Shown piece by piece: positions 6,579-60,587 of a stretch of 64,000 nucleotides of DNA. The translations under genes were made by a program, and so were the position numbers. Below the pieces are notes generated by a model that saw only the letters and a program-made list of their open reading frames with translations, was not told the DNA's origin and made no database searches. Numbering within the stretch: position 1 is the first letter of the stretch; each line of letters starts with the position of its first letter. Source of the stretch: Acidimicrobiales bacterium. GTDB lineage: Bacteria > Actinomycetota > Acidimicrobiia > Acidimicrobiales > RAAP-2. The stretch is taken from NCBI GenBank assembly GCA_036502025.1, contig DASXZJ010000090.1, positions 1,540-65,539 on the forward strand, written 5' to 3'.

Positions 6579-8086
6579 CCGTCTACCTCGTCGGGGCCGG
6601 ACCCGGGGACCCCGGATTGCTGACTCGCCGCGGGGCGCGGCTGCTCTCCGAGGCGGAGGTCGTGATCTACGACCGCCTGGTGCACCACTCGGTCCTGGCA
6701 CTGGCCCGGCCTTCGGCCGTCCTGATCGATGTGGGTAAGCGTCCCGACGCGGCGCAGTCCGGCGCGGACCGCCAGGAGGAGATCAACCGCTTGTTGCTCG
6801 AGCACGGTCGGGGCGGCCAGGTCGTGGTCCGGCTCAAGGGCGGCGACCCGTTCGTGTTCGGCCGGGGCGGTGAGGAAGGTGAGGTCCTCACCCGGGCGGG
6901 CGTGCCGTGGCAGGTGGTGCCCGGAGTTTCCTCGGCCTTCGGCGTCCCCGCCGCGGTTGGTATACCGGTGACCCAGCGCGGTTTCTCGTCGTCGGTGACC
7001 GTGGTCACCGGGCGGGTGGGCGACCCTTCGGCCCCGGGCGGCGTCGACTGGGCCACGCTGGCCAAGCTGGAGGGGACGCTGGTCATCTTGATGGGGATGA
7101 TGACCCGCACCGAGATCGCCGATGCCCTCCAGCACGCCGGCAAACCCGCCTCCACCGCGGTCGCGGTCATCGAGCGCGGCACCACCTCCTCGCAACGGGT
7201 CGTCCGCACCACCCTCGACCAGCTGGAGGCGGTCGACCTCGGCTCACCGTCGGTGATCGTGGTCGGAGCGGTAGCCGCACTGGGGGCCGGCCAACTCCCG
7301 CTGGTGTCGGCCGGGCCGCTCTCGGGTCGAACCATCGTGGTCACCCGATCAGGAACGCGGGCCCGTGGCCTGATCAGCGCGCTGCACGAAGCCGGAGCCG
7401 AGACCGTCGAGCTGCCGCTGACGCGTCAGACCGAGGCCGCCGACGGGGGAGCGGCGTTGCGCGCCGCGGCGGCGGACGTGGTGGCGTACACCTGGGTCGT
7501 CCTCACCTCGGCCAACGCGGTGGACCGGTTCATGGGGGAGCTACGTGACGCCAGGTCCCTCGGGGCGACGTTGGTGGCCGCGGTCGGCCCAGCCACCGCC
7601 GACGCCCTGCGCCTGGCCGGGGTCGAGCCGGACCTGGTGCCGGCTGAGCACTCGGCCCACGGGCTCGTCGAGGAATTCCCCGAGGCTGCCTCGTCGGCCG
7701 GTCGCGTGCTCTTTCCTGGCGCCGATCAGGCCCCTTCCACCATCCCTGACGGGTTGGAGGGGAGGGGCTGGCAGGTGAGCAGGGTCGAGGCGTACCGGAC
7801 GGTGGCGCTCCCACCACCCGAGGAGGCTCTGTCGGGTCGTGTCACCCAGGCCGATGCGGTGGTCTTCACCGCCACCTCCTCGGTCAGGGCATACCTCGCT
7901 CTGCGTGGATCCGACGGCGCCCCGCTGGCCGTGCCGCCCCTCGTCGTCTGCATCGGTCCAACGACGGCAGGCCACGCCCGCGAGCTCGGGCTGGCCAACG
8001 TCCACGAAGCGCACGGGTCATCGACCGCGGGCCTGGTGGCCGCGCTGATTCATCACCTGGGCGGGTCGCATCCGCCCGCCTCGTAG
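6575..8086 (+). CDS. hemD: fused uroporphyrinogen-III C-methyltransferase / uroporphyrinogen-III synthase
   Basis: N-terminal VYLVGAGPGDPGLLT and VRLKGGDPFVFGRGGEE (a CobA/SUMT-type domain), with a HemD-like C-terminal half from about IVVTRSGTRA onward. ATGA overlap with the hemC stop. Confidence 0.85.
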   Translation: MTVYLVGAGPGDPGLLTRRGARLLSEAEVVIYDRLVHHSVLALARPSAVLIDVGKRPDAAQSGADRQEEINRLLLEHGRGGQVVVRLKGGDPFVFGRGGEEGEVLTRAGVPWQVVPGVSSAFGVPAAVGIPVTQRGFSSSVTVVTGRVGDPSAPGGVDWATLAKLEGTLVILMGMMTRTEIADALQHAGKPASTAVAVIERGTTSSQRVVRTTLDQLEAVDLGSPSVIVVGAVAALGAGQLPLVSAGPLSGRTIVVTRSGTRARGLISALHEAGAETVELPLTRQTEAADGGAALRAAAADVVAYTWVVLTSANAVDRFMGELRDARSLGATLVAAVGPATADALRLAGVEPDLVPAEHSAHGLVEEFPEAASSAGRVLFPGADQAPSTIPDGLEGRGWQVSRVEAYRTVALPPPEEALSGRVTQADAVVFTATSSVRAYLALRGSDGAPLAVPPLVVCIGPTTAGHARELGLANVHEAHGSSTAGLVAALIHHLGGSHPPAS

Positions 8087-37222: not shown

Positions 37223-37342
37223 TCAGTGGTGGGGAGGGCGCTCCCGCTCCTGGCGCTCGGCCCAGCAGCGGTCGCAGTCCTCGCACGAGGCGTGGATGCC
37301 CGGGTGGCCGCAGCGCGGGCACCGGATCTCGGGCTCGGTCAC
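37223..37342 (-). CDS. candidate 39-codon Cys-rich (zinc-ribbon-like) mini-protein
   Basis: VTEPEIRCPRCGHPGIHASCEDCDRCWAERQERERPPHH. Its GTG shares one nt with the TAG stop of the upstream 1050-aa gene (TAGTG). It exactly fills the gap to the convergent gene. No homology support. Confidence 0.3.
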   Translation of the reverse strand: MTEPEIRCPRCGHPGIHASCEDCDRCWAERQERERPPHH

Positions 37343-40300
37343 TAACGGGCTGACCCTGTCGGCAGGATGGGCTCGGGCTCCGGTTGGGCGCCGTTGGAGC
37401 CGTTGCCGTCGGGCAAGGCCTCGAGGACGGCCTCGGGCACGGCGGGGCCCGAGCGCTTGGCCACCCCGGTGGTGAGCAAGCGGCCGATGACGGGGACCTC
37501 GGTCAGCGACTCGGCCCGCATGATCTGTACCGTCACCGGCACGAACTGCTCGGCCGAGTCGAAGACGATGTAGCGCGGGAGCCACTTGGGCTCGTACTTG
37601 GCGTTGAAGCGCCACAGTGTCTCGATCTGCAGGACGCCGGACAGCCGGCGCAGGGCCCAGCGCTCGACCCGTTGGGTGACGCCGTCGCCCGATTCGCCGT
37701 CGAGGATGGATCGCATAGCGGCGAAGTTGAGGCTCAATCCCTTCATGCCGCGTTCCTTCAAGTGGGTGATCGTCGAGCACAGCGCGAAGTCGAGCAGCCC
37801 GTTGGGATGCTCAGCCGGATCACGGCGCATGAGGTCCAACGAGAAGCCGCCGATCGCCGGCGACGGGACGAACTGGCACATGGCCACCGGAGCGCCGTCA
37901 GGACCCTCGACCAACGTGAGGAGGAGCCCGGTGTCGCGGCTGTCGAACAGCCGCCCGAGCATCATGGAGAAACCGCGCTCCTGGTCGCCGCGCCGGCTCT
38001 TGGCCATCAGTTCGACCAGCCGGGCGGCATCAGCCGTACTCAGGCGCGCCGGATCCAGGAAGCGCACGGTGTAGCCGTAGCGGGCGACGCGGTTCACGGC
38101 CTGGCGCAGGCCCTTCATCTTGCCGCCCTCGAGCGAGAACGTCCGGGGGTCGACCACCGCTTCGTCCCCGATGTAGAGGAAGCGCATGCCCGAGGCCTGA
38201 TAGGTCGGGAGCCACTCCTCGCCCGCCGCCATGACGCCCAGGCCCCACCCGTTCGCATCGACGTGACGCCGGAAGGCATCCCAAACGTGCGCCCGCTCGG
38301 TGAAGGGGCCGATGGGATCGGGTGAGACGAGGCACACGCCACCGAACACGGCATAGGCCACCATGGAGTCACGGTGGAAGAACCATTGCTTGTCGTCACG
38401 CAAGGCGAAGTAATCCAGTGTGCCGGTGCCGTGACGCCGCACGATGTCGCGGGCCCGCAGTTCGGCGGCCCGACGGCCCACCGCAGCCCGCCCGGTCGAC
38501 AGCTGGCGATCGACTACCGGCCGGGTGAGCAGGTAGAGGGCGAACACGATGAGGGTGATCCCCACCGCCAGGAGGCTCCACGACGCGTAGCGGTTGATGT
38601 GGACCGGGAAGCGGACCGCCTGGATGCCGATCAGGCGCTCGGCCGACCCCAGGAGCACGTTGGGCCAATAGGGCAGCTGATGGTGGTGCACCCGAGCGGC
38701 CACCTCGACGGCGATGAACGACCCGACTGTCGCCGCGACCCCGCCCAGGGCCAGGATGAGGAACGCGGAGAAGATGGTCCCCTGCTCGGTGGCGGCCCGG
38801 AAGCGCTCCCGTTGGACGACAAGGAGGACGAGCACAGCCGCACATATCAGTAGGTTGAACACGTCGGCGGCATGGATGACGTGTAACGCCAGCGTGGCCG
38901 AGAGGAGGCCCACGGCGACCATCCACGAGCGACGCTGGCCCCTGAGCACCCCGCGAGACAGCATGATCATCCCGATGCCTGAGATGGCCACCAGCGCGCC
39001 GGCGGCCTGGGACACCTCAACGGGCAGGTACTGCGCGATGAGGTGGAGGTGGGTGCGCACGGGGGAGGTGACCGCGGAGAGAAGGTCGATGAATCCGGCC
39101 ACGAAGAGCGAGACCGCCGCCAGTCGGCGGATGCGGCGCACCCTGATCCGATCGGCCGCCACCTCGGGGGCGGGCGGCCATGACGAGCCACTGGGCCAGC
39201 TGGCCACCAACTCCGGGTGGAGGTCAGCCGCTCTGGTGCGCCCCTTCACCACCGAGTCGTGGGTGACCAGACGCTCGCCCATGGTGGCCAAGGGCAGGTC
39301 GGCCTCGGCCTGCATCAGGCGCACGTGCAGATCGGCGCCGGTCTCGATCTCCAGCAGTGACATCTGCCGGTGATGCAGGAAGGTGGGAGGGAGCCCGAGC
39401 CGGCCCCGGTGCTCGTGCACCACCTCGGAAGTGGCGCCGGGACAGGCGAAGAAGCCGACGTCGAGATGGGTGAGCTCGGCGACGAGGGCCCCGCCTACGA
39501 CCACCCCGGCCGCCCCGACCTCGACCGCGGCCCGGGTGACGTCGAGCACGTCGACGCCGTCGATGCAGAGGAGCGAGTGCGCGGTCGGACGCGTGCCCTG
39601 GCTGCGCGTCCCGCCCGAGGCCCACGGCGTAGGGAGACCGTCACCGCCGAGGGCGCGCCAGATGCCGCGCGAGGTCATCGCGACCACCAGGGCCAGGATG
39701 AGGAGGAGCGCCACCGCAATGGCCAGGGTCACCAGGAACCGGGAGAACCATGACGCGTTGTACGCGTGCTGCAGGGCGCGCTGCTGGCGCGGCGATCGGA
39801 ACAGGTGGCCCAGGCCGTCGACCACGAACTCGAGTCGCAACAGGAGGGCTACCCCGGCCAATACCAACGGTGGTGCCCACAGATAGCGGCGCAGCCGGCG
39901 ATAGAGCAACCGGGAGGTGACGAACCGGCGGGCCAGGCGCGGGTCGTCGAGCCGTTCGAGGCCGACGAGCCAGGGTCGCTCGTCACTGGGCCCGGCGTCG
40001 ATGGGCGGGTTGGTGTCCGGCCGCGCCTGGCCCGAACGCACCAGCACGGTCCGCGTTCCGGTACCGGTCACACACTGCAGATCGGCACCGCCCACGATTT
40101 CGACCCCGAGACGAGCCAGGGCCCCGTTGAGCTCGCCGGCCTCGGCCGTCGGCGCGCCCAACGCAATGACCCGTGAGTCAGGCCGGGCGGCGAAGTTCCC
40201 GAGCGCGCCGGTCAGCTCGCCGTGGGCCGCCAACGCGTCGGCGGGCCCGGGCGATTCGTCGCAACCGGGAGCGATGAGCTGGCCGCAGAGCACGACGATG

Positions 40301-40494
40301 CCCGGACCCTGCCAGTCCGAGAGCAGCTGCTCTATGTCGTGGGCACCGGCCAGCGAGGTCGGTGAGGGAGTCGGAGGCAGCAGAAGGTCACCGATCACCA
40401 CCACCCGCCGACCGAGGGCGACGTCGATCGTCACCGACGGCTCGGGGCGCGGGTCGAGATCGATCCCGTCCCCCGAGTGGTCGTCCATAGTCAT
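37342..40494 (-). CDS. MprF-like aminoacyl-phosphatidylglycerol synthase family membrane protein (C-terminal DUF2156 domain) with an atypical N-terminal half of about 480 aa
   Basis: C-terminal HGTGTLDYFALRDDKQWFF, FLYIGDEAVVDPRTFSLEGGKMKGLRQAVNR, RGFSMMLGRLFD and LNFAAMRS. Six TM helices precede it. The N-terminal half is two soluble segments split by a TM hairpin. Confidence 0.75.
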   Translation of the reverse strand: MTMDDHSGDGIDLDPRPEPSVTIDVALGRRVVVIGDLLLPPTPSPTSLAGAHDIEQLLSDWQGPGIVVLCGQLIAPGCDESPGPADALAAHGELTGALGNFAARPDSRVIALGAPTAEAGELNGALARLGVEIVGGADLQCVTGTGTRTVLVRSGQARPDTNPPIDAGPSDERPWLVGLERLDDPRLARRFVTSRLLYRRLRRYLWAPPLVLAGVALLLRLEFVVDGLGHLFRSPRQQRALQHAYNASWFSRFLVTLAIAVALLLILALVVAMTSRGIWRALGGDGLPTPWASGGTRSQGTRPTAHSLLCIDGVDVLDVTRAAVEVGAAGVVVGGALVAELTHLDVGFFACPGATSEVVHEHRGRLGLPPTFLHHRQMSLLEIETGADLHVRLMQAEADLPLATMGERLVTHDSVVKGRTRAADLHPELVASWPSGSSWPPAPEVAADRIRVRRIRRLAAVSLFVAGFIDLLSAVTSPVRTHLHLIAQYLPVEVSQAAGALVAISGIGMIMLSRGVLRGQRRSWMVAVGLLSATLALHVIHAADVFNLLICAAVLVLLVVQRERFRAATEQGTIFSAFLILALGGVAATVGSFIAVEVAARVHHHQLPYWPNVLLGSAERLIGIQAVRFPVHINRYASWSLLAVGITLIVFALYLLTRPVVDRQLSTGRAAVGRRAAELRARDIVRRHGTGTLDYFALRDDKQWFFHRDSMVAYAVFGGVCLVSPDPIGPFTERAHVWDAFRRHVDANGWGLGVMAAGEEWLPTYQASGMRFLYIGDEAVVDPRTFSLEGGKMKGLRQAVNRVARYGYTVRFLDPARLSTADAARLVELMAKSRRGDQERGFSMMLGRLFDSRDTGLLLTLVEGPDGAPVAMCQFVPSPAIGGFSLDLMRRDPAEHPNGLLDFALCSTITHLKERGMKGLSLNFAAMRSILDGESGDGVTQRVERWALRRLSGVLQIETLWRFNAKYEPKWLPRYIVFDSAEQFVPVTVQIMRAESLTEVPVIGRLLTTGVAKRSGPAVPEAVLEALPDGNGSNGAQPEPEPILPTGSAR

Positions 40495-40573: not shown

Positions 40574-41140
40574 ATGCCCGGTAAGCTGGACTTTCGTGCC
40601 GTGCGTCACCCCCGATCGGCCCATCGGCCGGCTATGACCCTGGAGGGGGAGGCCCATCCCAACTGGCGCTGGCACGACGAAGGGGGAGCGCGTCACCCGG
40701 GCGGGCCCGCCGTGGTCTTCGACATCGACGGGGTCCTGTCCGACGCCGCCGGCCGCCAGCATTTCCTCGAAAGAGGGAGGCGGGACTGGTCAGCCTTCTT
40801 CGAGGCCTGCGGGGACGACCCGGTCATCGAGGAGATCGCCCGCCTCCTGGAGCTCCTCGACCCGGCGCTGGCCGTGGTCCTGCTGACGGGCCGACCGCGG
40901 CGCGTCCAGCCCCAGACATTGGCCTGGCTGCACCGCTACGGCCTTCGCTGGGACCTCCTGGTCATGCGCGATCGCGGGGACTACGCCCAGGTGACCTCGT
41001 TCAAGCAGAACGTGGTGGCCGATCTCCGAGCCCAGGGCTTCGACCTGCGGCTGGCCTTCGAGGACGATCCCTCGAACCATGCCATGTACGTGGCGGCCGG
41101 CATTCCCTGCGTGTACATCCACTCGGGGTACTACGCCTGA
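40574..41140 (+). CDS. HAD-superfamily phosphatase-like protein
   Basis: VVFDIDGVLSD (a DxDG nucleophile motif), LLTGRP and FEDDPSN. ATG 40634 is an alternative start. Confidence 0.65.
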   Translation: MPGKLDFRAVRHPRSAHRPAMTLEGEAHPNWRWHDEGGARHPGGPAVVFDIDGVLSDAAGRQHFLERGRRDWSAFFEACGDDPVIEEIARLLELLDPALAVVLLTGRPRRVQPQTLAWLHRYGLRWDLLVMRDRGDYAQVTSFKQNVVADLRAQGFDLRLAFEDDPSNHAMYVAAGIPCVYIHSGYYA

Positions 41141-42624
41141 GCCGTCCTCCGTTGCCGCCGCCACCCCGCGAGCAACGCCGCGGCGGCCAGCACGAGCACC
41201 GGCAGGTCGCCCAGATGGTCATAGGGCGTGAAGCCACGCCGCAGCGCGATCGTGGCGGTGAGTACCTGCGGCGCGCCGAGGACGGTCCGCCGGAGGACGA
41301 CGCCGCGCGGCGTGACGACCGTGCTGTAGCCGGTCGGCGCCGCCTGCAGCAGGTCACGCCCGGTCTCGACCGCCTGGACGGCGTCCGCCGCCACCTCCTG
41401 GGTCGGCACCTGCGACGTGGCGTACGACGCCGTGTTGGTGGGGACCACCAACAGTTCGGCCCCGGCCCGGACCGACGTGCGGCTGCGGCTGGCGTAGAAG
41501 ACTTCGAACGACACCAGGGTGCCCAGCGGCCCGGCGGGCGTGCGCATCAGCCCGTCGCCGTGGCCCGGCACCTCGTCGGTCGGCACGGCGGACACATCGG
41601 CCAGGTGGGAGATCAGCGACCGCCACGGTATGTACTCCCCGAACGGGACCCGGTGCACCTTCTCGAAGGTCGCCACAATGTTGCCGCGCGGTCCCCAGGC
41701 GACGATCCGGTTGTAGAAGGTGGTCGTCGACGCCGGCGCCGTGATGCCGGCCACCAACGTCGTGTGCAGCTGCCGCGCCACCGTCGCCATCAGGGTGGCC
41801 TCGCTCGATCCTCGGAGGGATCGGTCCAGGGCGATGACGTCCTCGGGCCACAGGACCAGATCGGGTGCCGGCCCATCGTCACCGAGGCGAATGGTGTCCT
41901 CGACCTGGGCACGAAAGACGGCGGCCGCCGACACCTGCTCCTTGGAGAGGCCACGCGTGCCCCCGCCCTGGACCAGCGCCGCCGTGATGGAGCGCACCGG
42001 CGGACCACCATCGGGCACGAGCGCACCGATGACCACCAGGAGCGCCAGCCCGGCCAGGATCGCCATCCCCCGGGCGGAGCGGGCGCGGGTCTCGCCGCGG
42101 CGGGCCCGGCGGCGACCGCCCACGAGAGTGGCCAGGCCCACCCCACCCAGCCAGACGCCGGCGGTGAGCAGGAGCGGACCGCCGAGCCGGGCCAGCTGGA
42201 GCAGAGGGCCGTCCGCCTGCCCCAGGAAGACACCGCCCAGCGGCAGACCCCCGAAGGGCCAGGTCATGCGGACCGCCTCGACCAGGGTGCTGGCCGCCAC
42301 GAAGGCGGGCGCCCGGCCCCGGTGCGGTGGGGTCAGCGCGGCCGCCACGGCGATGAACAGGGCCTCGAGCAGCACGAGGACGAGCGCGCCATACCAATTG
42401 AAGGTGCCGGCCCACCAGAGTCCGGGGGCATAGCAGCCGAGGCCGGCCAGCCAACCCGCCCACACCCTCGTCCCGACGGGCAGCCCGGCCAGCCGCCAGT
42501 AGAGCAGTCCCGCTCCGGCCAGACCCAGGGGCCACCATCCCCAGGGGGGCAACGAGCCGGCCAGCAGGACGCCGGCGAGCAGCGACGGCAGGATGATCCG
42601 GCCGCGCCGAGTGGGGAGGTTCAC
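41131..42624 (-). CDS. lnt: apolipoprotein N-acyltransferase (Lnt)-like CN-hydrolase membrane protein with Ser at the catalytic Cys position
   Basis: Multi-TM N-terminus. LVLWPED (Glu), FEKVHRVPFGEYIP (Lys), and LGTLVSFEVFY where ICYE is expected. GTGA overlap with the hemY stop. Confidence 0.75.
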   Translation of the reverse strand: MNLPTRRGRIILPSLLAGVLLAGSLPPWGWWPLGLAGAGLLYWRLAGLPVGTRVWAGWLAGLGCYAPGLWWAGTFNWYGALVLVLLEALFIAVAAALTPPHRGRAPAFVAASTLVEAVRMTWPFGGLPLGGVFLGQADGPLLQLARLGGPLLLTAGVWLGGVGLATLVGGRRRARRGETRARSARGMAILAGLALLVVIGALVPDGGPPVRSITAALVQGGGTRGLSKEQVSAAAVFRAQVEDTIRLGDDGPAPDLVLWPEDVIALDRSLRGSSEATLMATVARQLHTTLVAGITAPASTTTFYNRIVAWGPRGNIVATFEKVHRVPFGEYIPWRSLISHLADVSAVPTDEVPGHGDGLMRTPAGPLGTLVSFEVFYASRSRTSVRAGAELLVVPTNTASYATSQVPTQEVAADAVQAVETGRDLLQAAPTGYSTVVTPRGVVLRRTVLGAPQVLTATIALRRGFTPYDHLGDLPVLVLAAAALLAGWRRQRRTAQA

Positions 42625-44051
42625 GGACCGGCGCCCATGACGGCCCGGGCCGCCGCCCGCCCGCTGGCGATGCAGGCCGGGATCCCCACCCCCCGGTAGG
42701 CCGCCCCGGCCACGGCGACGGTGCCCAGCCGGGCCATCGCCGCCTCGATACCGGTGGTCCGCAGGAGGTGGTGCACCCGGTACTGAGGGAAGGCCTGCGG
42801 CCAGCGGGTCACCATGGCGTCGACCGGCTCTCCCGCCACGCCCATGAGCTGACCGAGCTCGTGCCAGGCCCGCTCGGACAGCTCGGTGTCGTCCCAGCCG
42901 CCGAACCGCTCGTCACCGAACCGGCCGACGGAGGCCCGCAGGAGTACCTCACCGTGGCGCGCCAGGTTCGGCCACTTGGCCGAGAGATAGGTGCACGCCG
43001 TGACGGCCCAGCCGTCGGCACTCGCCGCGCCGGCGCTGCGTCGGGGGACGAGGAAGCCGGTCCCGCTCAGCGGCCGGGTCAGCGCGTCCGGCGTCGTGCG
43101 GAAGGTGATCAGGGCCACCGACGCGTACTCGATGGCGCCGAGCAAGCCGGCCGCCTCGCCGTCGTGCGGACCGAGGAGCGCGCCGGCTGCCGGGGCGGGC
43201 ACGGCGAGGACCACGGCGTCGGCCGGCGTCTCGGTGTCGCCGGTGATCACGCTCCACCCCGCCGCGGCGCGCTCGAGGCGTGTCACCGGCACGGCGCTAC
43301 GGATCGTCACGCCCCTCGCCGACAGCGCCGCTTCGAGCTGATGCACCACGGACGCCATGCCATCGGCCAACGTCCAGAACAGCGGGGGCGCCTCAGCAGC
43401 TGGCGCCGGCTCGGGCACCGTGGCGCGCAGGGCGCGCATGAGGCTGCCGCGGGTCTGTGCCGCCGTGAGGAGCGGGGGGAAGGTGGCGGCGGCGGACATG
43501 TCGTCCACCGAGCCCGCGTGGATCCCACCGATCAGGGGGTCGACCAGCCGATCGACCACCCGCCGGCCGAGCTTGCGGGTCACCAGCGGTCCGATGGCCC
43601 GGTCGCCGATGGGGCCGCGCCAGTCGGGGCGGGGGAGCAGGGCGTCCCGGGCCAGGCTGAGCTGGCCCCGAAGGCCGAGGATGCCCGAGCGCGCCGTGGG
43701 CCAGAACCGCGTGGGGATGCCCAGAGCCAGTCCTTCGGGCAAGGGCCGGAGGCGACCGCGGGCCCATACGCCGGCCCCCCGTTGGCCGATCGGGACCAAC
43801 GCGCCGCCCAGCCCCACCTCGTGGCAGAGCTCCAGCGCTTCGGGCCGGCGGCCGAGGAAGCCGTCGGGACCGGCATCGACGAGCTGACCGCCGAACTCCT
43901 CGGTGCGCAGCATGCCGCCGAGCCGGTCGGACCCCTCCAGGAGGACGACCTCGGGTGCGTCGGCCCGCGGGCCCGACCCACCACCCGTCAGCTCCCACGC
44001 CGCGGCCAAACCGCTGATGCCACCACCCACCACCACGACCCGACGGCTCAC
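42621..44051 (-). CDS. hemY: protoporphyrinogen/coproporphyrinogen III oxidase (HemY/CgoX)
   Basis: FAD motif VVVVGGGISGLAAAWEL. 476 aa. It sits within the hemE-hemH-hemY context. Confidence 0.85.
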   Translation of the reverse strand: MSRRVVVVGGGISGLAAAWELTGGGSGPRADAPEVVLLEGSDRLGGMLRTEEFGGQLVDAGPDGFLGRRPEALELCHEVGLGGALVPIGQRGAGVWARGRLRPLPEGLALGIPTRFWPTARSGILGLRGQLSLARDALLPRPDWRGPIGDRAIGPLVTRKLGRRVVDRLVDPLIGGIHAGSVDDMSAAATFPPLLTAAQTRGSLMRALRATVPEPAPAAEAPPLFWTLADGMASVVHQLEAALSARGVTIRSAVPVTRLERAAAGWSVITGDTETPADAVVLAVPAPAAGALLGPHDGEAAGLLGAIEYASVALITFRTTPDALTRPLSGTGFLVPRRSAGAASADGWAVTACTYLSAKWPNLARHGEVLLRASVGRFGDERFGGWDDTELSERAWHELGQLMGVAGEPVDAMVTRWPQAFPQYRVHHLLRTTGIEAAMARLGTVAVAGAAYRGVGIPACIASGRAAARAVMGAGP

Positions 44052-44063
44052 CGGCTCACCGGC

Positions 44064-45014
44064 TCAGTCCGCCGGCGGGTCGGCGCCGTCCGCGGCAACC
44101 ACGACGTCGGCCAGCACGTCGATGAAGCGGGGGTCGTCGTTGAGCGAGGCCGTGCGGGCCAACACCACCCCGGCGTCGGTGGCCACGGCCGCCAGCTCCA
44201 CATCGAGGTCGTAGAGCACCTCGAGGTGGTCGGCCACAAAGCCGATCGGGCAGACCACAACGCCGTCGATGCCACCATCGGCGCCGAGCGCACGCACCAC
44301 GTCGCGCACGTCGGGCCCCAGCCACATCTCCTCGGTGCGGCCGGCGCTCTGCCAGGCCACGTCCCAGTGCGCCAGGCCGGCCGCCTCGGCGACCAGGCGG
44401 GCCGACTCGGCCAGCTGCTCGGGGTAGGTGTCACCCGCCTGCCGCACGCGCTCGGGCACTGAATGGGCGGTGAAGATCACCCGGCACCGGTCCCCCCCAC
44501 CCTCGCCCGCGACCAGCGACCCGACGGCGGACTCGACCCGCTCGGCCAGGAGCGCCACCAGGCCGGGCTCGGCGTACCAGGGGGGCACGGCGAGGAACGG
44601 GACGCTCCCGCCCAGCGCGGCTTGCGCCCGCTCCAGATACTCCCCCGACCCCATCGACGACCCGTGTGGGGTGAGGACCAGCCCGATGATCCTCTCGGCG
44701 CCCGCGTCGGCCAACCCCCTCGCCGCATCCTCGATGAAGGGGCTGGTGTGCTTGGCCCCGAAGGCCACCGCGTACCGGCCCGGCGCCCGCGCCGAGAGCA
44801 CCAAGCCGAGCGCCTCGACCTGGGCCGCCGTCCGCCGGGTCAGAGGCGAGACCCCACCGATGGCGTCGTAGCGGCGCTCGAGATCGGCCAACTGCTCGGC
44901 CGAGGGGGGCCGGCCACGGCGGATGCGCGTATAGAAAGGTGCGATCTGCCCGGGACCCGCCGGGGTGCCGTGCGCCATCACGAGGACTCCGACCGGCCCG
45001 CTCACGTCACTCAC
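44064..45014 (-). CDS. hemH: ferrochelatase (coproporphyrin ferrochelatase type)
   Basis: VLVMAHGTP, FTAHSVPE and CPIGFVADHLEVLYDLD. Confidence 0.85.
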   Translation of the reverse strand: MSDVSGPVGVLVMAHGTPAGPGQIAPFYTRIRRGRPPSAEQLADLERRYDAIGGVSPLTRRTAAQVEALGLVLSARAPGRYAVAFGAKHTSPFIEDAARGLADAGAERIIGLVLTPHGSSMGSGEYLERAQAALGGSVPFLAVPPWYAEPGLVALLAERVESAVGSLVAGEGGGDRCRVIFTAHSVPERVRQAGDTYPEQLAESARLVAEAAGLAHWDVAWQSAGRTEEMWLGPDVRDVVRALGADGGIDGVVVCPIGFVADHLEVLYDLDVELAAVATDAGVVLARTASLNDDPRFIDVLADVVVAADGADPPAD

Positions 45015-45017
45015 CCC

Positions 45018-46076
45018 TCACCCGACGGGGTGCGCGTGCACCAGGTCCACCACGGCCCCGAGTATCCCGATGTCGGCTTCGGGGAGGACGCCGTGGCCGA
45101 GGTTGAAGATGTGGCCGGTGCCGCCGCCGCCCGCCGCGCCGTCGGCCAGCACCTGGCGGGCGGCCTCCTCCACCACCGGCCAGGGCGCCACGCAGAGGGC
45201 GGGGTCCAGGTTGCCCTGCACCGCGTGATCCGGGCCGACCCGCCGGCGTGCCTCGTCCAGGGGCACCCGCCAGTCCACCCCGACCACGTCGGAGCCCGCG
45301 GTGGCCATGAGGCCGAGCAGCTCGCCGGTGCCCACCCCGAAGAGGATGGACGGGACGCCGAGGTCGGCGATCCCCTCGAACACGGCCCGGGTGGCGGGCA
45401 GCACGAAGCGCTCGTACTCGGCCGGGGAGAGCGAGCCGGCCCAGCTGTCGAACAGCTGCACGGCCTGGACCCCCGCCTCGATCTGGGCCCGCAGGAACGC
45501 CACCGACATGTCGGCCAGCCGGGTCATGACGCTCTGCCACAGCCCGGGGTCGCGGTGCATGAGCGACTTGACCCTGGCGAAGGTCCGTGACGGGCCACCC
45601 TCGATGAGGTAGCTGGCCACCGTGAAGGGGGCGCCGGCGAAGCCGATCAGGGCCGTCCCGCTCCCGGCCAGCTCCCCGGCCACCAGGCGCACGGCCTCGG
45701 TGACATACGGCACGTCGGCCTGCGGCTCGAGCGGGCGCAGCCTTCGGAGGTCGTCGGCCGACCGGAAGGGCTGCTCGACCACGGGACCCCGACCCGGCTC
45801 GACGTCCACGCCGAAGCCGATGGCGTGGACCGGGACGACGATGTCGGAGAAGAGGATGGCGGCGTCGACGCCGTAGCGACGGACGGGCTGGAGCGTCAGT
45901 TCGGCCGAGAGGGCGGCATCGCCGATGGCCGAGAGAATCGACCCTCCGCCGCGGGCCGCCCGGTACTCGGGCAGTGAGCGCCCGGCCTGGCGCATGAACC
46001 ACACCGGGGTCCGCGCGACCGGCTGGCGGAAGCAGGCACGCACCAGGTCCGTGTCGGCGACCGCCCCGGGGCTCAC
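45018..46076 (-). CDS. hemE: uroporphyrinogen decarboxylase
   Basis: [31 protein letters not shown] and IFNLGHG. Confidence 0.9.
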
Positions 46077-46396
46077 CCGAGCGGCTCTAGGACGACCGCG
46101 GTCCCGTAGGCGCAGATCTCGGTCCAGTTGCCGCCCATCTCCGAGGTGTCGAAGCGCATGGCCAGGACGGCATTGCCGCCCTTTGCTTCCGCCTCGCTCA
46201 CCATTCGGCCGACCACTTCTTCCCGGCTGAGCTGCAGGTTCTTCGTCATTCCCTTGAGCTCGCCCCCGGCCAGGGACTTGAAGGCGGCACCGAGCTGGGA
46301 CCCTACGTTGCGAGAGCGAACGGTGAGGCCGAAGACCTCCCCGAGGACCGACGTCACCTTGTAACCGGGCGCGTCGTTCATGGTTGAAATGAGCAT
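46073..46396 (-). CDS. YbjQ/UPF0145 family (putative heavy-metal-binding) protein
   Basis: [30 protein letters not shown]...[18 protein letters not shown] overlap with the hemE start. Confidence 0.85.
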
Positions 46397-46517
46397 GAGG
46401 TTCCTTTCGCTCGCGGCCGACCGCTCATCGTAGGCGGGCCTCGGCGTGTGCCCCCGTCGCTGGCCGCCGAGTAAGCTGGACCGTTTCCCTGACGGGCGGG
46501 GGGAGAAAGGGGCGACG

Positions 46518-48902
46518 TTGCCGGAACATCCCGATCTGGAGGCTGAGCAGGAGTTCCTTAACCGCGCCCACGATGGTCTCGACTTCATGCGCGGCGAGGC
46601 CCGCCAGATGCTCCAGGGCGTCCTGGACTTGGGGCGCGGCGGCACCTTCCAGTCCCGTACCGAGCGCGACATCGTCGTGCGGACCAGCCTGGCCCGCCTC
46701 GAGCAGCTGGACATCGGCGACCAGGCGCTGTACTTCGGCCGCATCGATCGCTTCCCCGAGCCGGGCACCGAACCCACTGACGGGAGCAACGGCCCGGCGC
46801 TCGGCGAGTCCTTCCACATCGGCCGCCTGGCCGTGTCGGGACCGGATCACGATCCGTTGGTGGTGGATTGGCGGGCGCCAGTGGCCGAGCCGTTCTACCG
46901 GGCCACCGGACTCGATCCGCAGGGGCTGGCCCGCCGCCGTCATCTGGCCGTGCGGGGCCGCACGGTGCTCGGGTTAGAGGACGAGTACTTCGCCGACCCC
47001 AACCGGGCCCCCGGCGCGCCCGTGCTCGGCGTGTCCGACACCGGGCCGTCGACCAACGGATCCGAGGGCGAGCGCCTGCTGTCCGAGGGCATGGTGCTCG
47101 GTGGTCCCGGCGCCCTGCTCTCGGCCCTGGGGCAGGCGCGGACGGGGCACATGGGCGACATCATCGGCACCATCCAGCGCGAGCAGGACGAGATCATCCG
47201 TTCCCCCCTCACGGGCGTCCTGGTCGTCCAGGGCGGCCCCGGCACCGGCAAGACGGCCGTCGCCCTGCACCGGGCCGCCTACCTCCTCTACACCCACCGC
47301 TTCCCGCTCGAGCGCCAGGGCGTGCTGGTCGTCGGACCCAACCCGCTGTTCCTGCGCTACATCGAGCAGGTGCTGCCCTCCCTCGGCGAAACGGGCGTCA
47401 GCCTCTCCACCGTGGCCGGGCTGGTCCCCGAGATCCGGGTGCGTGGGACCGACGATGCCGCCGTGGCCACACTCAAGGGCGACGTGCGCATGGTCCAGGT
47501 GCTGACCCGAGCCGTGCGGACCCGCCAGCGGCCCCTACGCCACGACCTCGAGGTGCCGTTCGGCGCCGGTGTGCTGCGCCTACGGGCCAAGACCACCGAG
47601 GACATCGTCGCCGCGGCGCGCCGGCGTCCCGGCACCCACAACGTGCGCCGCCGCTTCGTCGAGGCCAGCGTGCTCCGGGCCCTGTCGGACGACTACCGCG
47701 CCCGCTTCTCCCGCGGCGCCGAGACCGAGGAGGACGGCCCGAGCGCCGAGGAGCAGGCCGACCTGGCCCAGCGGCTCCGCCGTACGCCGCCGGTGGCCGA
47801 GGCCCTCGATCGCATGTGGCCGCGCCTGTCCCCCCACGAGCTCATCCACGACCTCCTGGGCGCCCGGCCGCTGTTGGATGCCGCCGGCAAGGGCGTCCTC
47901 AAGGCTCAGGACGCGCAACGGCTCTACCGGCCCCGCAGCGCGTCACTCGACGCCGTGCCCTGGACCGTGGCCGACGCCGCCCTCATCGACGAGGCCCGCA
48001 CCATCCTGGGGCCGCGGCGTGGCTCGGCTCGTCCGAACCGTCGACCGACTCGGGCCGAGGAGGGGACGGCTCAGGAGGGTGGGTTCTGGCCCCAGGGGCT
48101 CGCCTCCTCGCCGATGCCCACCTCCGGTGCGCCGCTGGGCCACGACGACGAGATCCGCTCCTTCGGGCACATCGTGGTCGACGAGGTGCAGGACCTCTCC
48201 CCGATGCAGCTGCGCATGCTCGGTCGCCGCTCCCTGTCGGGCTCGATGACCGTGGTGGGCGACATCGCTCAGGCCACCGGACCCTGGGCCCCGCGCGACT
48301 GGGACGACGTGACGCGCCACCTGACTTCGAAGCGCCCGCCCCGGCTGGTCGAGCTCACCGTCAGCTACCGGACACCTGCCGAGGTGGTGGCGGTGGCTGC
48401 CCAAGTGCTGGCCGTGGCCGCCCCGTCGATCGCCCCGCCGCGACCGGTGCGCCAGTCGGGGAACATACCCCGTCTCATCCGGTCGTCCCGGGCCGGGCTG
48501 GCCGAGGCCGTGGCCCAGGCCACGCGGGAGGAGGTCGAGGCAGTGTCCCCGGGTCGGGTGGCCGTGCTCGGACCGGCGGTCCTGCTGCCTGAACTGGCTC
48601 GCGCCCTCGCCGAAGCCGGCCTGTACGCCATCGACCCACGCGATCCGCTGGGCGACGGCCTCGCCGCCGGGTTAGTGCTCCTCCCGGCCGACGAGACCAA
48701 CGGGCTGGAGTTCGATGCCGTGGTGGTGGTCGAGCCGGCGATGGTCGCTGCGGTGGGCGGGGACTCGCTGGGCGAGGGCCCCCCGGTGGCCACGACACGC
48801 GGGCTGCGGACCCTCTATGTGGCCCTGACCAGGCCCACGCGGCGCCTGACCATCGTGCACGCCGACCGCCTCCCGGTCGAACTGGTGATCGCCCCCAACT
48901 GA
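46518..48902 (+). CDS. helD: HelD-like UvrD/Rep superfamily-1 helicase (RNA polymerase-associated ATPase candidate)
   Basis: Walker A VVQGGPGTGKTAVALHRAAYLLY, VVDEVQDLS, LYVALTRPTRRL. GGGAGAAAGGGG precedes TTG 46518. The ORF opens at 46446. Confidence 0.8.
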   Translation: MPEHPDLEAEQEFLNRAHDGLDFMRGEARQMLQGVLDLGRGGTFQSRTERDIVVRTSLARLEQLDIGDQALYFGRIDRFPEPGTEPTDGSNGPALGESFHIGRLAVSGPDHDPLVVDWRAPVAEPFYRATGLDPQGLARRRHLAVRGRTVLGLEDEYFADPNRAPGAPVLGVSDTGPSTNGSEGERLLSEGMVLGGPGALLSALGQARTGHMGDIIGTIQREQDEIIRSPLTGVLVVQGGPGTGKTAVALHRAAYLLYTHRFPLERQGVLVVGPNPLFLRYIEQVLPSLGETGVSLSTVAGLVPEIRVRGTDDAAVATLKGDVRMVQVLTRAVRTRQRPLRHDLEVPFGAGVLRLRAKTTEDIVAAARRRPGTHNVRRRFVEASVLRALSDDYRARFSRGAETEEDGPSAEEQADLAQRLRRTPPVAEALDRMWPRLSPHELIHDLLGARPLLDAAGKGVLKAQDAQRLYRPRSASLDAVPWTVADAALIDEARTILGPRRGSARPNRRPTRAEEGTAQEGGFWPQGLASSPMPTSGAPLGHDDEIRSFGHIVVDEVQDLSPMQLRMLGRRSLSGSMTVVGDIAQATGPWAPRDWDDVTRHLTSKRPPRLVELTVSYRTPAEVVAVAAQVLAVAAPSIAPPRPVRQSGNIPRLIRSSRAGLAEAVAQATREEVEAVSPGRVAVLGPAVLLPELARALAEAGLYAIDPRDPLGDGLAAGLVLLPADETNGLEFDAVVVVEPAMVAAVGGDSLGEGPPVATTRGLRTLYVALTRPTRRLTIVHADRLPVELVIAPN

Positions 48903-57935: not shown

Positions 57936-59716
57936 GCGACGGGCACTTTCTCTCTGGGCGGTCCCGATGGAGGGGCCGCGTGGGGGCCGTGGGGGACGGT
58001 GAGGTCGTCGGGGTGGTTGTAGTCCCAGGTGGGGCGCTCCGAGCGGATCGGCGGCAGGTGCGTGTAGTTGTGGTGCGGGGGCGGCGAGGTGGTGAACCAC
58101 TCCAACGTGTGAGCGTCCCAGGGGTTGTTGCCCGCCGGGATGGGGTTGCGCCAGGAGACCACGAAGTTGACCAGGAGGAGGAAGAAGGAGACGCCGATGA
58201 TGAAGGCGCCCACCGTCGAGACGATGTTGTAGCTCTGCCAGCCGAGGTTCGACGGATAGCTGGCCACTCGACGCGGCATGCCCAGCAGGCCGACCACGTA
58301 CTGCGGCATGAAGGTCACCCAGAAGCCGATGAACAACAGCCAGAAGTGCCACTTGCCGAGGCCCTCCCGCAGCATCCGGCCGAACATCTTGGGGTACCAG
58401 TAGTAGAGGCCGGCGAAACCACCCAGCACGGCCGTGCCGAAGAGCACCTGGTGGAAGTGCGCCACCACGAAGTAGGTGTCGTGGGTGGCGAAGTCGATCG
58501 GCGGCGACGCCAACATGATCCCGGTCACGCCACCCATCAGGAAGGCGAAGAGGAATCCGATGCTGAACAGCATGGCGGTGGTGAACTGCAGCTGGCCGCG
58601 CCACATGGTGCCGATCCAGTTGAAGAACTTGATCCCGGTCGGTACGGCGATGAGGAGACTCAGGAAAGAGAAGAACGGCAGCAGCACGGCTCCGGTGGTG
58701 AACATGTGGTGGGCCCACACGCCAGTGGAGAGAGCGGCGATGGCCATGGTGGCGAACACCATGCCCTTGTACCCGAAGACCGGCTTGCGGGAGAAGACCG
58801 GCAGGACCTCGGTCACGATCCCGAAGAAGGGTAAGGCGAGGATATAGACCTCCGGATGGCCGAAGAACCAGAAGAGGTTCTGCCATAACAGGGGTGAACC
58901 ACCCCCCGCCACGCTGTAGATGTGCGTACCGAAGTGACGGTCGCAGAACAGCATGATCAGGGCACTGGTGAGCACCGGGAAGGCGATGAGGATGAGGATG
59001 CCGGTGACGAGCATGTTCCAGGTGAAGATGGGCATCCGGAACATCGTCATGCCCGGGGCGCGTAGGTAGAAGATGGTGGCGACCAGGTTCACGCCGGTGA
59101 AGATGGCCGAGAACCCGGTGAGGGCCAGCGCCATGATCCAGACGTCACCACCCGCCCCGGGCGAGCTGGTCGCGCTCGACAGGGGCGCGTAGGCGACCCA
59201 GCCGAAGCTGGCGGCGCCGCCGGCCACGAGGAAGCCCATGAGCATGGTGATCGAGCCGGTGAGGTAGAGCCAGTAGCTCAGCGCGTTGAGTCGAGGGAAC
59301 GCCATGTCGGGCGCGCCGATCTGGAGCGGTACGACGTAGTTGGCCAGGCCACCGAAGGCGAACGGTCCGGCGAACAGGTACAACATCAGGCTGCCGTGCA
59401 TGGTGAACAGCTCGTTGTACTGCCCGAAGGTCAAAAGGGAGGAGTGCGGGGAGGTGAGCTGGATCCGGATGAGCAGCGCCATGATCCCGGCCAGGTAGAA
59501 CATCACGATCGACGTGATCATGTAACTGAGGCCGATCACCTTGTGGTCGGTGGAGGTCAGCCACTTGAGGATCCCCGTCGGGCCGTGCTCGTCGTGCCCG
59601 TGTGCGTGGCCGTCGTCGGAACCGTGCCCGTTGGTCGCGGGCGGAAGGTGGAGTGCGGGCGCCTCGGTTTCGGCCGCGTCTGGCGGCGCGATGACGTCAG
59701 TCACCGTACAGGTCAC
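57932..59716 (-). CDS. ctaD: cytochrome c oxidase subunit I
   Basis: [24 protein letters not shown], and HHMFT. Confidence 0.95.
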
Positions 59717-60587
59717 CTCCCTGGTTGTTGTTGGCCGAGTTGCCGGTGTTGGTGCCGTTCACGCCGCTAGGGAGCTTAGGCACCGAGGAAGGGTTGTTCT
59801 TGACCTCCGCCTGCTGGACGCGCAGCCACCTGGCGTACTGGGCGGGGGTCACCGCCTTGACATTGAAGAACATCAAGGAGTGGTAGAGCCCGCAGAGCTG
59901 GGTGCACTGGCCCCGGTAGGTCCCCGGGTGCAGCACGTTGAAATCGAACGTCGAGGCGTAACCGGGGCTGGCGTACCGGCTGAAGTTGAACTGGGGTACG
60001 TAGAACCCGTGCAGGACGTCGAGAGAATTGAGGGTGATGCGCACCGTCTGGCCGGCCGGGATCACCATGGTCGGCGCCTGCGTGGTCTGGCCGATGACCT
60101 TGACCCCGCCCGGGTACTCGAACTCCCAGCCCCACTGGAAGGCGTGCACGGTCACCTTGGCCTCGGGGTTCGGTGAGATGGCGTCGACCTTGTTCTCGGC
60201 CAGCACGGTGAACACGAAGAGCACCAGGACGATGACGATCGGCACCACGGTGTAGATGATCTCGGTGAGCGTGTGGTACTGGGTCTGGCGGGGGATCTCC
60301 TCGGAGCGGCGGCGGTACCGGAAGACGGCCCAGAGGATCAGGAGGAGGACGAGCCCGCCGACCACGATGCCGGCGATGAAGAAGCCCTGCCAGAGGTGGA
60401 ACTCGGTTCGTCCCTGAGTCGTCGCCCCCTTGTACTCCCCGAACGTGGGCAGTGTGCAGCCGGTGAGGAGGAAGGCGGCGGCCACGATCCCGACCACCGC
60501 CAGCCGCCGGCGCGGCGACCGCGAAGTCGAATTCTGGGGGCTCGAAGCGGTCGGGATGGCAGAAGGGCTGGTCAACGACGAGTCCAC
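59697..60587 (-). CDS. ctaC: cytochrome c oxidase subunit II (lipoprotein)
   Basis: Lipobox LLTGC. CuA site HSFWVP-like DVLHGFYVP and [12 protein letters not shown]. Confidence 0.9.

Follow-up and report, generated by a model that had tools for sequence, protein, structure and literature searches.

Identification of an Lnt homologue with serine at the nucleophile position

The window analysed here is a 64,000-nucleotide stretch of the Acidimicrobiales bacterium assembly GCA_036502025.1 (contig DASXZJ010000090.1, positions 1,540 to 65,539 of the forward strand). Its minus strand carries, at 41131..42624, an open reading frame (ORF) that starts with GTG, encodes 497 aa and forms the last gene of a heme-biosynthesis operon. 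The product is a homologue of apolipoprotein N-acyltransferase (Lnt) with Ser in place of the catalytic Cys; we call the gene lnt and its product a predicted Ser-type Lnt-family acyltransferase. Pfam assigns residues 17-159 to LNT_N (PF20154) and residues 273-461 to CN_hydrolase (PF00795). The NCBIfam equivalog model TIGR00546 ('lnt') gives the protein 175.8 bits against a cut-off of 132.9, and a phmmer search of all Protein Data Bank (PDB) chains aligns it end to end with Pseudomonas aeruginosa Lnt (5n6m, E-value 1.4e-19) and with Escherichia coli Lnt. The AlphaFold2 (AF2) model, calculated with 37 diverse relatives as input, has a mean predicted local distance difference test score of 94.1 and a predicted template-modelling score of 0.94. 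When this model was compared with the PDB using Foldseek, the best 24 matches were all Lnt structures, superimposed over the whole length with template-modelling (TM) scores of 0.77-0.83. The protein has a polytopic N-terminal LNT_N domain, an extracytoplasmic nitrilase-like (CN-hydrolase) domain, a C-terminal transmembrane helix and the Lnt fold; by descent, fold and curated score, it is a member of the Lnt family.

The nitrilase superfamily, which includes Lnt, is mechanistically defined by a Glu-Lys-Cys triad and a thioester intermediate. As stated in the initial annotation of the window, the three motifs typical of the superfamily are present in the translation, as LVLWPED, FEKVHRVPFGEYIP and LGTLVSFEVFY. 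In the phmmer alignment to the E. coli and P. aeruginosa enzymes, LVLWPED falls on the catalytic Glu, FEKVHRVPFGEY falls on the catalytic Lys and the second Glu, and the query segment 'gtlvSFEvfy' lies opposite 'apyiCYEvvy', placing Ser372 (codon TCG at 41509..41511, minus strand) at the position of the catalytic Cys, C387 in E. coli. Specifically, Glu261 in LVLWPED (41842..41844, computed from the ORF start) corresponds to the general base E267, Lys322 in FEKVHRVPFGEY (41659..41661) to K335, Glu330 in VPFGEY (41635..41637) to the second catalytic Glu, E343, and Glu374 in SFE (41503..41505) to E389, all four codons being on the minus strand. In the AF2 model, residue 372 is located at the elbow between a strand (365-369) and a helix (372-376). 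The alpha-beta-beta-alpha fold, the Glu and Lys at the strand ends and the elbow position of residue 372 are those of the nitrilase superfamily, with Ser, not Cys, as the nucleophile residue. The Glu-Lys-Ser reading of the initial annotation is thereby borne out, as is its remark that the protein contains a single Cys, C64 in LGCYAPG.

We considered whether the nucleophile could be misaligned and rejected this, as the phmmer alignment to PDB chains, the MAFFT alignments and the AF2 secondary structure all put S372 at the Cys position. C64 was likewise rejected as a hidden alternative nucleophile: it is kept in close relatives only, is replaced by W, L or F elsewhere in the family and is thus not conserved. 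Because the protein departs from the mechanistic hallmark of Lnt, the Cys thioester, we name it a Ser-nucleophile Lnt homologue, which probably works like Lnt. Ser-type Lnt proteins at present carry the automatic annotation 'apolipoprotein N-acyltransferase', without distinction.

Conservation of serine across Acidimicrobiia

E261, K322, E330, S372 and E374 are invariant in all 120 of the best database homologues (at least 69% identity; those with names are Acidimicrobiales), and also in the 37 diverse representatives. A search among the representatives of 50%-identity clusters gave 475 clusters at E-values of 1e-30 or below, and the best 150 representatives were inspected at the nucleophile site. 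Ser is found in 131 of them and Cys in 3; the other 16 are fragments or frameshifted there, so that Ser accounts for 131 of the 134 representatives covering the site. Two scans of one-genome-per-species contigs, each contributing the best 80 of the matches listed, yielded loci that extend up to 10 kb on either side. At least about 150 of these loci (cited below by L numbers where needed) are of the Acidimicrobiia type, and all of them read E-K-E-S-[FYW]-E, down to about 31% identity. The nearest Cys-type proteins among the matches listed, at 31-34% identity, are Actinomycetes Lnts from Streptomyces, Kitasatospora, Actinocrinis, Georgenia and Nanopelagicales. What looked like Asp at this site in Georgenia (L076) proved to be a tblastn misalignment; the protein reads GICFE and has Cys. 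In intact sequences, the only residue other than Ser at site 372 is Cys. As far as these alignments reach, the Ser state is fixed across the class Acidimicrobiia, apart from a few syntenic orthologues with Cys.

Three Cys lineages are nested in the Ser clade, namely P0135/P0276 (L083), P0128/P0271 (L085) and P0178. In L083 and L085, the gene occupies the same slot as in the window, with ctaE/qcrCAB and a UvrD-like gene followed by hemE-hemH-hemY-lnt; downstream lies a convergent HAD gene in L083 and a DBI_PRT gene instead in L085. We built neighbour-joining (NJ) trees with 200 bootstrap replicates, rooted them with Actinomycetes Cys-type Lnts and obtained the ancestral state by parsimony. The split between ingroup and outgroup is recovered in 200/200 replicates, the ancestral ingroup residue is Ser in 200/200, and three independent Ser-to-Cys changes are needed in 197/200. 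The Ser clade differs from the Actinomycetes Cys-type Lnts in having VQGGG (G221, G222) where the latter have VQGNV, Phe376 where they have Ala376 and Ser400 where they have Thr400. All three Cys lineages retain the Ser-clade signature G221, G222, F376, S400 and T431, and differ at the nucleophile only. On these trees and alignments, Ser is ancestral to the whole clade, and the swap to Cys needs no other change in the scaffold, which argues that the scaffold can take both nucleophiles. Cys-bearing orthologues (TGC or TGT) in the hemE-hemH-hemY-lnt slot lie at 10001-11458 of L083, 7013-8470 of L084 and 10001-11818 of L085, and look like natural Ser-to-Cys revertants that would serve as ready-made comparison enzymes.

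The codons at site 372 tell of the same interchange. Among the genome loci, Ser is encoded by TCN in 146 and by AGY in 9, and the AGC lineage L015 branches beside a TGC lineage. TCN and AGY are not one substitution apart, and the route between them passes through Cys (TGY) or Thr; this 'two serines' argument for catalytic serines was reportedly made by Brenner in 1988. Drift would be expected at a site without activity; only Ser and Cys, the two competent nucleophiles, occur here and the partner residues do not change, as would be the case for an essential nucleophile that may be either residue. This is our main argument for an enzyme with residue 372 as its nucleophile. The conservation of the site, together with Ser/Cys interchange in syntenic orthologues, indicates selection on a working nucleophile.

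Conserved position of lnt in a heme-biosynthesis operon

Upstream of lnt and on the same strand lie hemY (42621..44051; protoporphyrinogen/coproporphyrinogen oxidase family, Pfam Amino_oxidase, TIGR00562), hemH (44064..45014; ferrochelatase, Pfam Ferrochelatase 238 bits, TIGR00109) and hemE (45018..46076; uroporphyrinogen decarboxylase, Pfam URO-D 406 bits, TIGR01464). The hemY stop and the lnt start overlap by 4 bp, in the sequence GTGA. In 63 related loci, among them those of the two syntenic lineages with Cys, a hemY homologue precedes lnt on the same strand. Among loci of at least 9 kb, linkage to hemY/hemE is present in 61/64 in the first scan and 23/43 in the second, and it persists down to about 31% Lnt identity. 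The hemE-(hemH)-hemY-lnt arrangement is conserved across the class, and lnt is the positionally conserved Lnt homologue of Acidimicrobiia. The initial annotation had described the gene as the oddly placed, overlap-coupled last gene of a heme operon and had considered it a possible paralogue. The placement and the overlap hold; the arrangement is too widely conserved to be called odd, and 'paralogue' finds no support for this lineage, given that the Lnt homologue found in this position throughout the class is this very gene.

Some loci show local variation. In the Ilumatobacteraceae metagenome-assembled genome (MAG) of L058, hemY and lnt are separated by a 300-aa ORF (7051-7953, plus strand) that has a Thr-rich linker and, at its C-terminus, a sortase-like domain (…TLFACHP…), and in L066, hemY is lengthened to 582 aa by a repetitive insert. 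Five loci (L044, L062, L064, L067 and L112) bear labels among Bifidobacterium, Gammaproteobacteria, Acidobacteria and 'Bacillus sp. AZ43 (UNVERIFIED_ORG)'. The hem-lnt operon of Acidimicrobiia is present in L044, L064 and L067, the 3.9-kb contig L062 has an actinobacterial Ser-type lnt only, and L112 is of the Actinomycetes copper-island type described below; all five probably represent mis-binned or contaminated assemblies.

Comparison with known Lnt proteins

The window protein shares with E. coli and P. aeruginosa Lnt (5n6h, 5n6m, 8b0k-p) the two-domain architecture, the fold (TM score about 0.8 over the full length) and the equivalents of E267, K335, E343 and E389. It differs from them in its Ser nucleophile, in the absence of W237, in having Phe for Y388, in overall sequence (about 20-25% identity) and in being encoded by the last gene of a heme-biosynthesis operon. 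The engineered E. coli Lnt C387S (5vrh, 8b0m) has the identical substitution at the same site and forms an acyl-enzyme; this mutant, made in the laboratory, turns over little or not at all, whereas the window protein comes from a natural clade in which Ser is kept by selection across a bacterial class. The nearest Cys-type relatives, Streptomyces Lnt1/Lnt2 and other Actinomycetes Lnts (for example L071-L082; 31-34% identity), have the VPFGEYxPxR and E-K-E-x-F-E motifs in common with it and differ in having Cys, VQGNV, Ala376 and Thr400; hemY/hemE occur within their 8-kb flanks in 0/10 loci of at least 9 kb.

A natural C387S homologue was already reported in 2013 in Mycobacterium bovis BCG and M. 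tuberculosis (PMC3850990). Compared by its described residues only, this second Lnt homologue of the M. tuberculosis complex, BCG_2279c/Rv2262c-Rv2261c, likewise has Ser at C387 and retains E267, K335, E343 and E389, and its Q233 is Gly, which is compatible with the glycine-rich VQGGG loop of the window protein's clade. P266 and N314, reported as changed in BCG_2279c, are both conserved in that clade. Unlike the window gene, BCG_2279c is a second copy beside a functional Cys-Lnt (Ppm1), is split by a frameshift in H37Rv and is inactive on four lipoproteins. No Mycobacterium locus is among the best 80 matches listed of either genome scan. We searched the literature for reports of a Ser-type Lnt family, of Acidimicrobiia Lnt and of a copper link of such paralogues, and found nothing but the 2013 BCG paper. 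The bare Cys-to-Ser substitution is thus already known; in the literature searched, we found no mention of Ser-type Lnt throughout a class, Ser/Cys toggling or copper-island copies.

Proposed function and mechanism

In the ping-pong reaction of E. coli Lnt, Cys attacks the sn-1 ester of a phospholipid, giving an acyl-thioester and a lysophospholipid, and the N-terminal amine of the lipoprotein takes the acyl group (PMC10313180, PMC5500888 and works cited in PMC3850990). From the observed family, fold, position of Ser, conservation, synteny and Ser/Cys interchange, we infer catalytic activity, an oxy-ester intermediate and an acceptor, and the balance tips, by a modest amount, toward an active acyl-O-Ser Lnt that serves as the housekeeping lipoprotein N-acyltransferase of the lineage. 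By analogy with the Lnt reaction, Glu261 would act as general base, and the active site would further comprise Lys322, Glu330 and Glu374. In the first step, an ester-to-ester exchange, attack of Ser372 on the sn-1 ester of a membrane phospholipid would yield an acyl-O-Ser (oxy-ester) enzyme and lysophospholipid. Aminolysis would then pass the acyl group on to an amine, for which the free alpha-amino group of S-diacylglyceryl-Cys lipoproteins is the likeliest candidate. A thiol-free nucleophile might be favoured on the outward-facing side of the membrane, where it would not be poisoned by thiophilic metals or oxidants. The substrate may have changed, though the data do not require it. In support of the first step, E. 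coli Lnt C387S forms an acyl-enzyme (PMC3850990) and is described as having 'low activity' (PMC10313180); step 1 is therefore feasible with Ser.

In the window, ctaC (cytochrome oxidase subunit II; 59697..60587, minus strand; Pfam COX2/COX2_TM) encodes a signal peptide that ends in the lipobox AAAFLLTGC (LLTGC), and the organism therefore makes lipoprotein precursors. CtaC is thus a predicted lipoprotein and may be a substrate of the lnt product encoded 17 kb away. It is possible that lnt is co-regulated with respiratory complexes containing lipoproteins such as CtaC.

Several points weigh against an active housekeeping N-acyltransferase. E. coli C387S is inactive or nearly so in step 2, the transfer (PMC3850990, PMC10313180), and a natural Ser enzyme would therefore need further features. 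BCG_2279c, the sole natural Ser-type homologue studied, failed to N-acylate the four lipoproteins on which it was tested in an lnt mutant of BCG (PMC3850990). W237, reported as essential in E. coli, has no equivalent and aligns to Lys/Glu in 'GLSKEQ', and the Y388 equivalent is Phe373, the position being F, Y or W across the clade; a functional mycobacterial Lnt likewise lacks W237 and has Trp at 388 (PMC3850990), so neither residue is universal among active Lnts. The deeply conserved linkage to the heme operon is not accounted for by a lipoprotein function. A canonical Cys lnt elsewhere in the genome, if present, could leave the Ser-type gene with an accessory or different role. Finally, the reconstruction of Ser as ancestral comes from NJ trees only, with moderate internal support and a root that rests on the Actinomycetes Cys-type sequences.

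Alternative explanations

The alternative that survives best, which we regard as unlikely though deserving of attention, is that the protein does form a Ser-linked acyl-enzyme, with an acceptor or outcome other than lipoprotein N-acylation. The acyl group might go to another envelope molecule, the reaction might be an O-acylation, or it might amount to phospholipase-A1-like turnover to lysophospholipid, perhaps tied to heme or respiratory-complex biogenesis. Such a change would accommodate the class-wide coupling, both translational and positional, to hemE-hemH-hemY, near ctaE/qcrCAB, nuo and ctaCD, which a generic lipoprotein role leaves unaccounted for. The clade-specific loop after Q219 (VQGGG as against VQGNV or VQGDIPQ), together with F376, S400 and T431, could alter acceptor binding; the lack of conservation of W237 and the failure of BCG_2279c to act on its four lipoproteins (PMC3850990) point the same way. 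There is also precedent for Lnt homologues with shifted acceptors in AatD, which reportedly acylates N-terminal Gly (bioRxiv 10.1101/2020.09.23.310854). However, the protein has the full Lnt architecture and scores above the Lnt equivalog cut-off, and the Cys-bearing syntenic orthologues differ at the nucleophile only, which suggests that the protein does what a thioester Lnt does, with no new chemistry. The related Pseudonocardia Ser-type genes that adjoin a second lspA and lipoprotein genes point to lipoprotein processing, and no conserved neighbour indicates an alternative acceptor, save the heme enzymes, for which no acylated intermediate is known.

An accessory role as a second Lnt-like protein, such as Streptomyces Lnt2 or BCG_2279c, assisting or acting under special conditions while a canonical Cys-Lnt elsewhere does the main work, is rather improbable. 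Those two proteins are precedents for subsidiary paralogues (PMC3850990), and the Ser-type copies of Actinomycetes are probably additional to a canonical Lnt, for example in Corynebacterium and Streptomyces, genera with described canonical Lnts (PMC3460810; PMC3850990). In Acidimicrobiia, however, the gene is conserved vertically in one syntenic slot across the class, and its position in the tree is that expected for the lineage's Lnt orthologue relative to the Actinomycetes Cys-type Lnts. Furthermore, when contig names were compared among the best 80 matches listed per genome scan, no Acidimicrobiia genome turned up with more than one distinct locus, which is weak evidence, and tblastn with Ser- and Cys-type queries found no second Lnt homologue in the 64-kb window.

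That the protein is a pseudoenzyme, a dead Lnt homologue kept for a structural or regulatory role, seems very unlikely. It would explain why the textbook Cys is absent, and it is in keeping with the engineered E. coli Lnt C387S being essentially inactive in turnover. Pseudoenzymes typically lose constraint on their remaining catalytic residues, whereas here E261, K322, E330, E374 and the Ser are invariant in hundreds of sequences, down to about 31% identity, and the sole alternative at the site in intact sequences is Cys. Between the two options left by the initial annotation, an inactive paralogue or pseudoenzyme and an enzyme working through an oxy-ester, we therefore favour the second. The chance that Ser372 stems from an error of sequencing or assembly, or from a mutation specific to the strain, is negligible; nothing speaks for either beyond the prior expectation of Cys, since TCG is two substitutions away from TGY, as noted from the outset, and since Ser in all 120 close homologues (independent samples), in 131 of the 134 representatives and in all of the at least about 150 independent Acidimicrobiia-type loci excludes chance and sequencing error.

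Ser-type copies in Actinomycetes and their association with copper genes

A Ser-type subclade occurs in Actinomycetes, in Corynebacterium, Janibacter, Jiangella, Pseudonocardia, Blastococcus, Geodermatophilus, Klenkia, Pengzhenrongella, Phytoactinopolyspora and one Streptomyces. It is monophyletic in 200/200 bootstrap replicates, falls inside the Acidimicrobiia-type clade with 66% support and lacks the heme linkage. We counted copper genes (CsoR, CopZ, Cu-ATPase, multicopper oxidase, SCO1, CopC/CopD and DUF3105) within 8 kb of lnt in loci of at least 9 kb. At least one is present in 22/33 Actinomycetes Ser-type loci, 3 of which supplied the reference proteins for the comparison, and at least two are present in 11. 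The corresponding numbers are 1/10 and 0 for Actinomycetes Cys-type loci, and 1/107 and 0 for Acidimicrobiia loci. Other metal genes (Zip, CDF and ArsR) are also found near the Actinomycetes Ser-type genes (L086-L119, L122, L132 and L133).

In two Pseudonocardia loci, L087 (5881-6423) and L090, the Ser-type lnt has a Lipoprotein_15 gene and a second lspA (Peptidase_A8) a few kb away, in a cluster of CopC/CopD and multicopper oxidase genes, as if a module for lipoprotein maturation had been duplicated within a copper island. Some genomes contain two distinct copies of Ser-type lnt, namely the MAG MFD03066.bin.2.7 (L111, L118), Pseudonocardia sp. OFTM335 (L091, L097) and Pseudonocardia sp. KRD-184 (P0364, P0389, both listed with a longest contig of 6.66 Mb).

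Copper impairs lipoprotein acylation in E. coli, where the copper-sensitivity locus cutE is lnt (PMC6538781). One hypothesis for the use of Ser is accordingly that a thiol-free Lnt could not be blocked by thiophilic metals or oxidants; the gene in the window would be concerned only by extension. A broader proposal, which we put forward tentatively and hold to be doubtful as a whole, is that the clade represents the first natural oxygen-nucleophile branch of the nitrilase superfamily, a thiol-free N-acyltransferase proof against copper and oxidants. It would be the housekeeping Lnt in Acidimicrobiia, and the Actinomycetes copy would have been acquired horizontally in copper-resistance islands, as a backup for the metal-sensitive Cys-Lnt when copper attacks lipoprotein maturation. 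A parallel is provided by lit2/lgt2 of Firmicutes, which are carried on mobile elements for copper resistance (Armbruster et al. 2019, reviewed in PMC8689077), where extra lipoprotein-modifying genes likewise reside in copper clusters, as the Actinomycetes Ser-type lnt does near CsoR, CopZ, Cu-ATPase and multicopper oxidase genes. The enzyme family and the reaction, an intramolecular transacylation, are unrelated, and the parallel holds for the Actinomycetes subclade, not for the heme-linked gene of the window.

These observations bear on a superfamily known for its Cys nucleophile, in that strong purifying selection maintains Ser in a large natural clade, comprising hundreds of 50%-identity clusters, a whole bacterial class and horizontally spread copies. 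Should the clade be active, the Lnt scaffold can run on an oxy-ester, which would be useful for enzymology and for understanding how the second step, aminolysis, is activated. Lnt is of interest as an antibiotic target, and Cys-directed covalent inhibitors would miss Ser-type enzymes. The proposal could also explain, in a way open to testing, why the M. tuberculosis complex has a second 'Lnt', long a puzzle, and would link lipoprotein maturation to copper stress in Actinobacteria, parallel to lit2/lgt2 in Firmicutes and cutE (lnt) in E. coli.

Genomic neighbourhood of lnt in the window

The window as a whole is a respiratory neighbourhood. The nuo operon (about 20.9-31.9 kb) is followed by PadR, GGDEF and L,D-transpeptidase genes and a gene for a 1050-aa MprF-like protein; next come the convergent HAD phosphatase gene, the minus-strand series lnt-hemY-hemH-hemE and a YbjQ-domain gene, a UvrD-like gene, ctaE with qcrCAB, and ctaD with ctaC.

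The YbjQ-domain gene (46073..46819, minus strand; Pfam YbjQ_1 on residues 142-243) is the first of the co-directional cluster, and its stop overlaps the hemE start. As mechanically listed, its ORF has 248 aa, and the syntenic homologues in L001 and L002 have 107 aa; the true start is probably internal to the 248-aa ORF. At the other end of the cluster, the HAD-family phosphatase gene (40574..41140, plus strand; Pfam HAD_PNKP/Acid_phosphat_B), convergent with lnt, overlaps the lnt 3' end by 10 bp. L001, L002 and L083 show a convergent overlap of similar length, which is thus conserved and does not result from faulty gene calling.

The MprF-like and HAD-phosphatase genes were set aside as functional partners of lnt, being kept in the closest relatives only (14 and 18 loci, respectively). 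The 1050-aa protein (37342-40494, minus strand), encoded downstream of lnt in close relatives only, has a C-terminal LPG_synthase_C (aminoacyl-phosphatidylglycerol synthase) domain after a long N-terminal membrane region, and its partial matches to MprF/LysX models are far under the cut-offs. Between the heme cluster and ctaE, an 818-aa protein (46446-48902, plus strand) matches UvrD-helicase/AAA_19 over only about 45 residues (245-296), and its position is kept in L001, L083 and L085.

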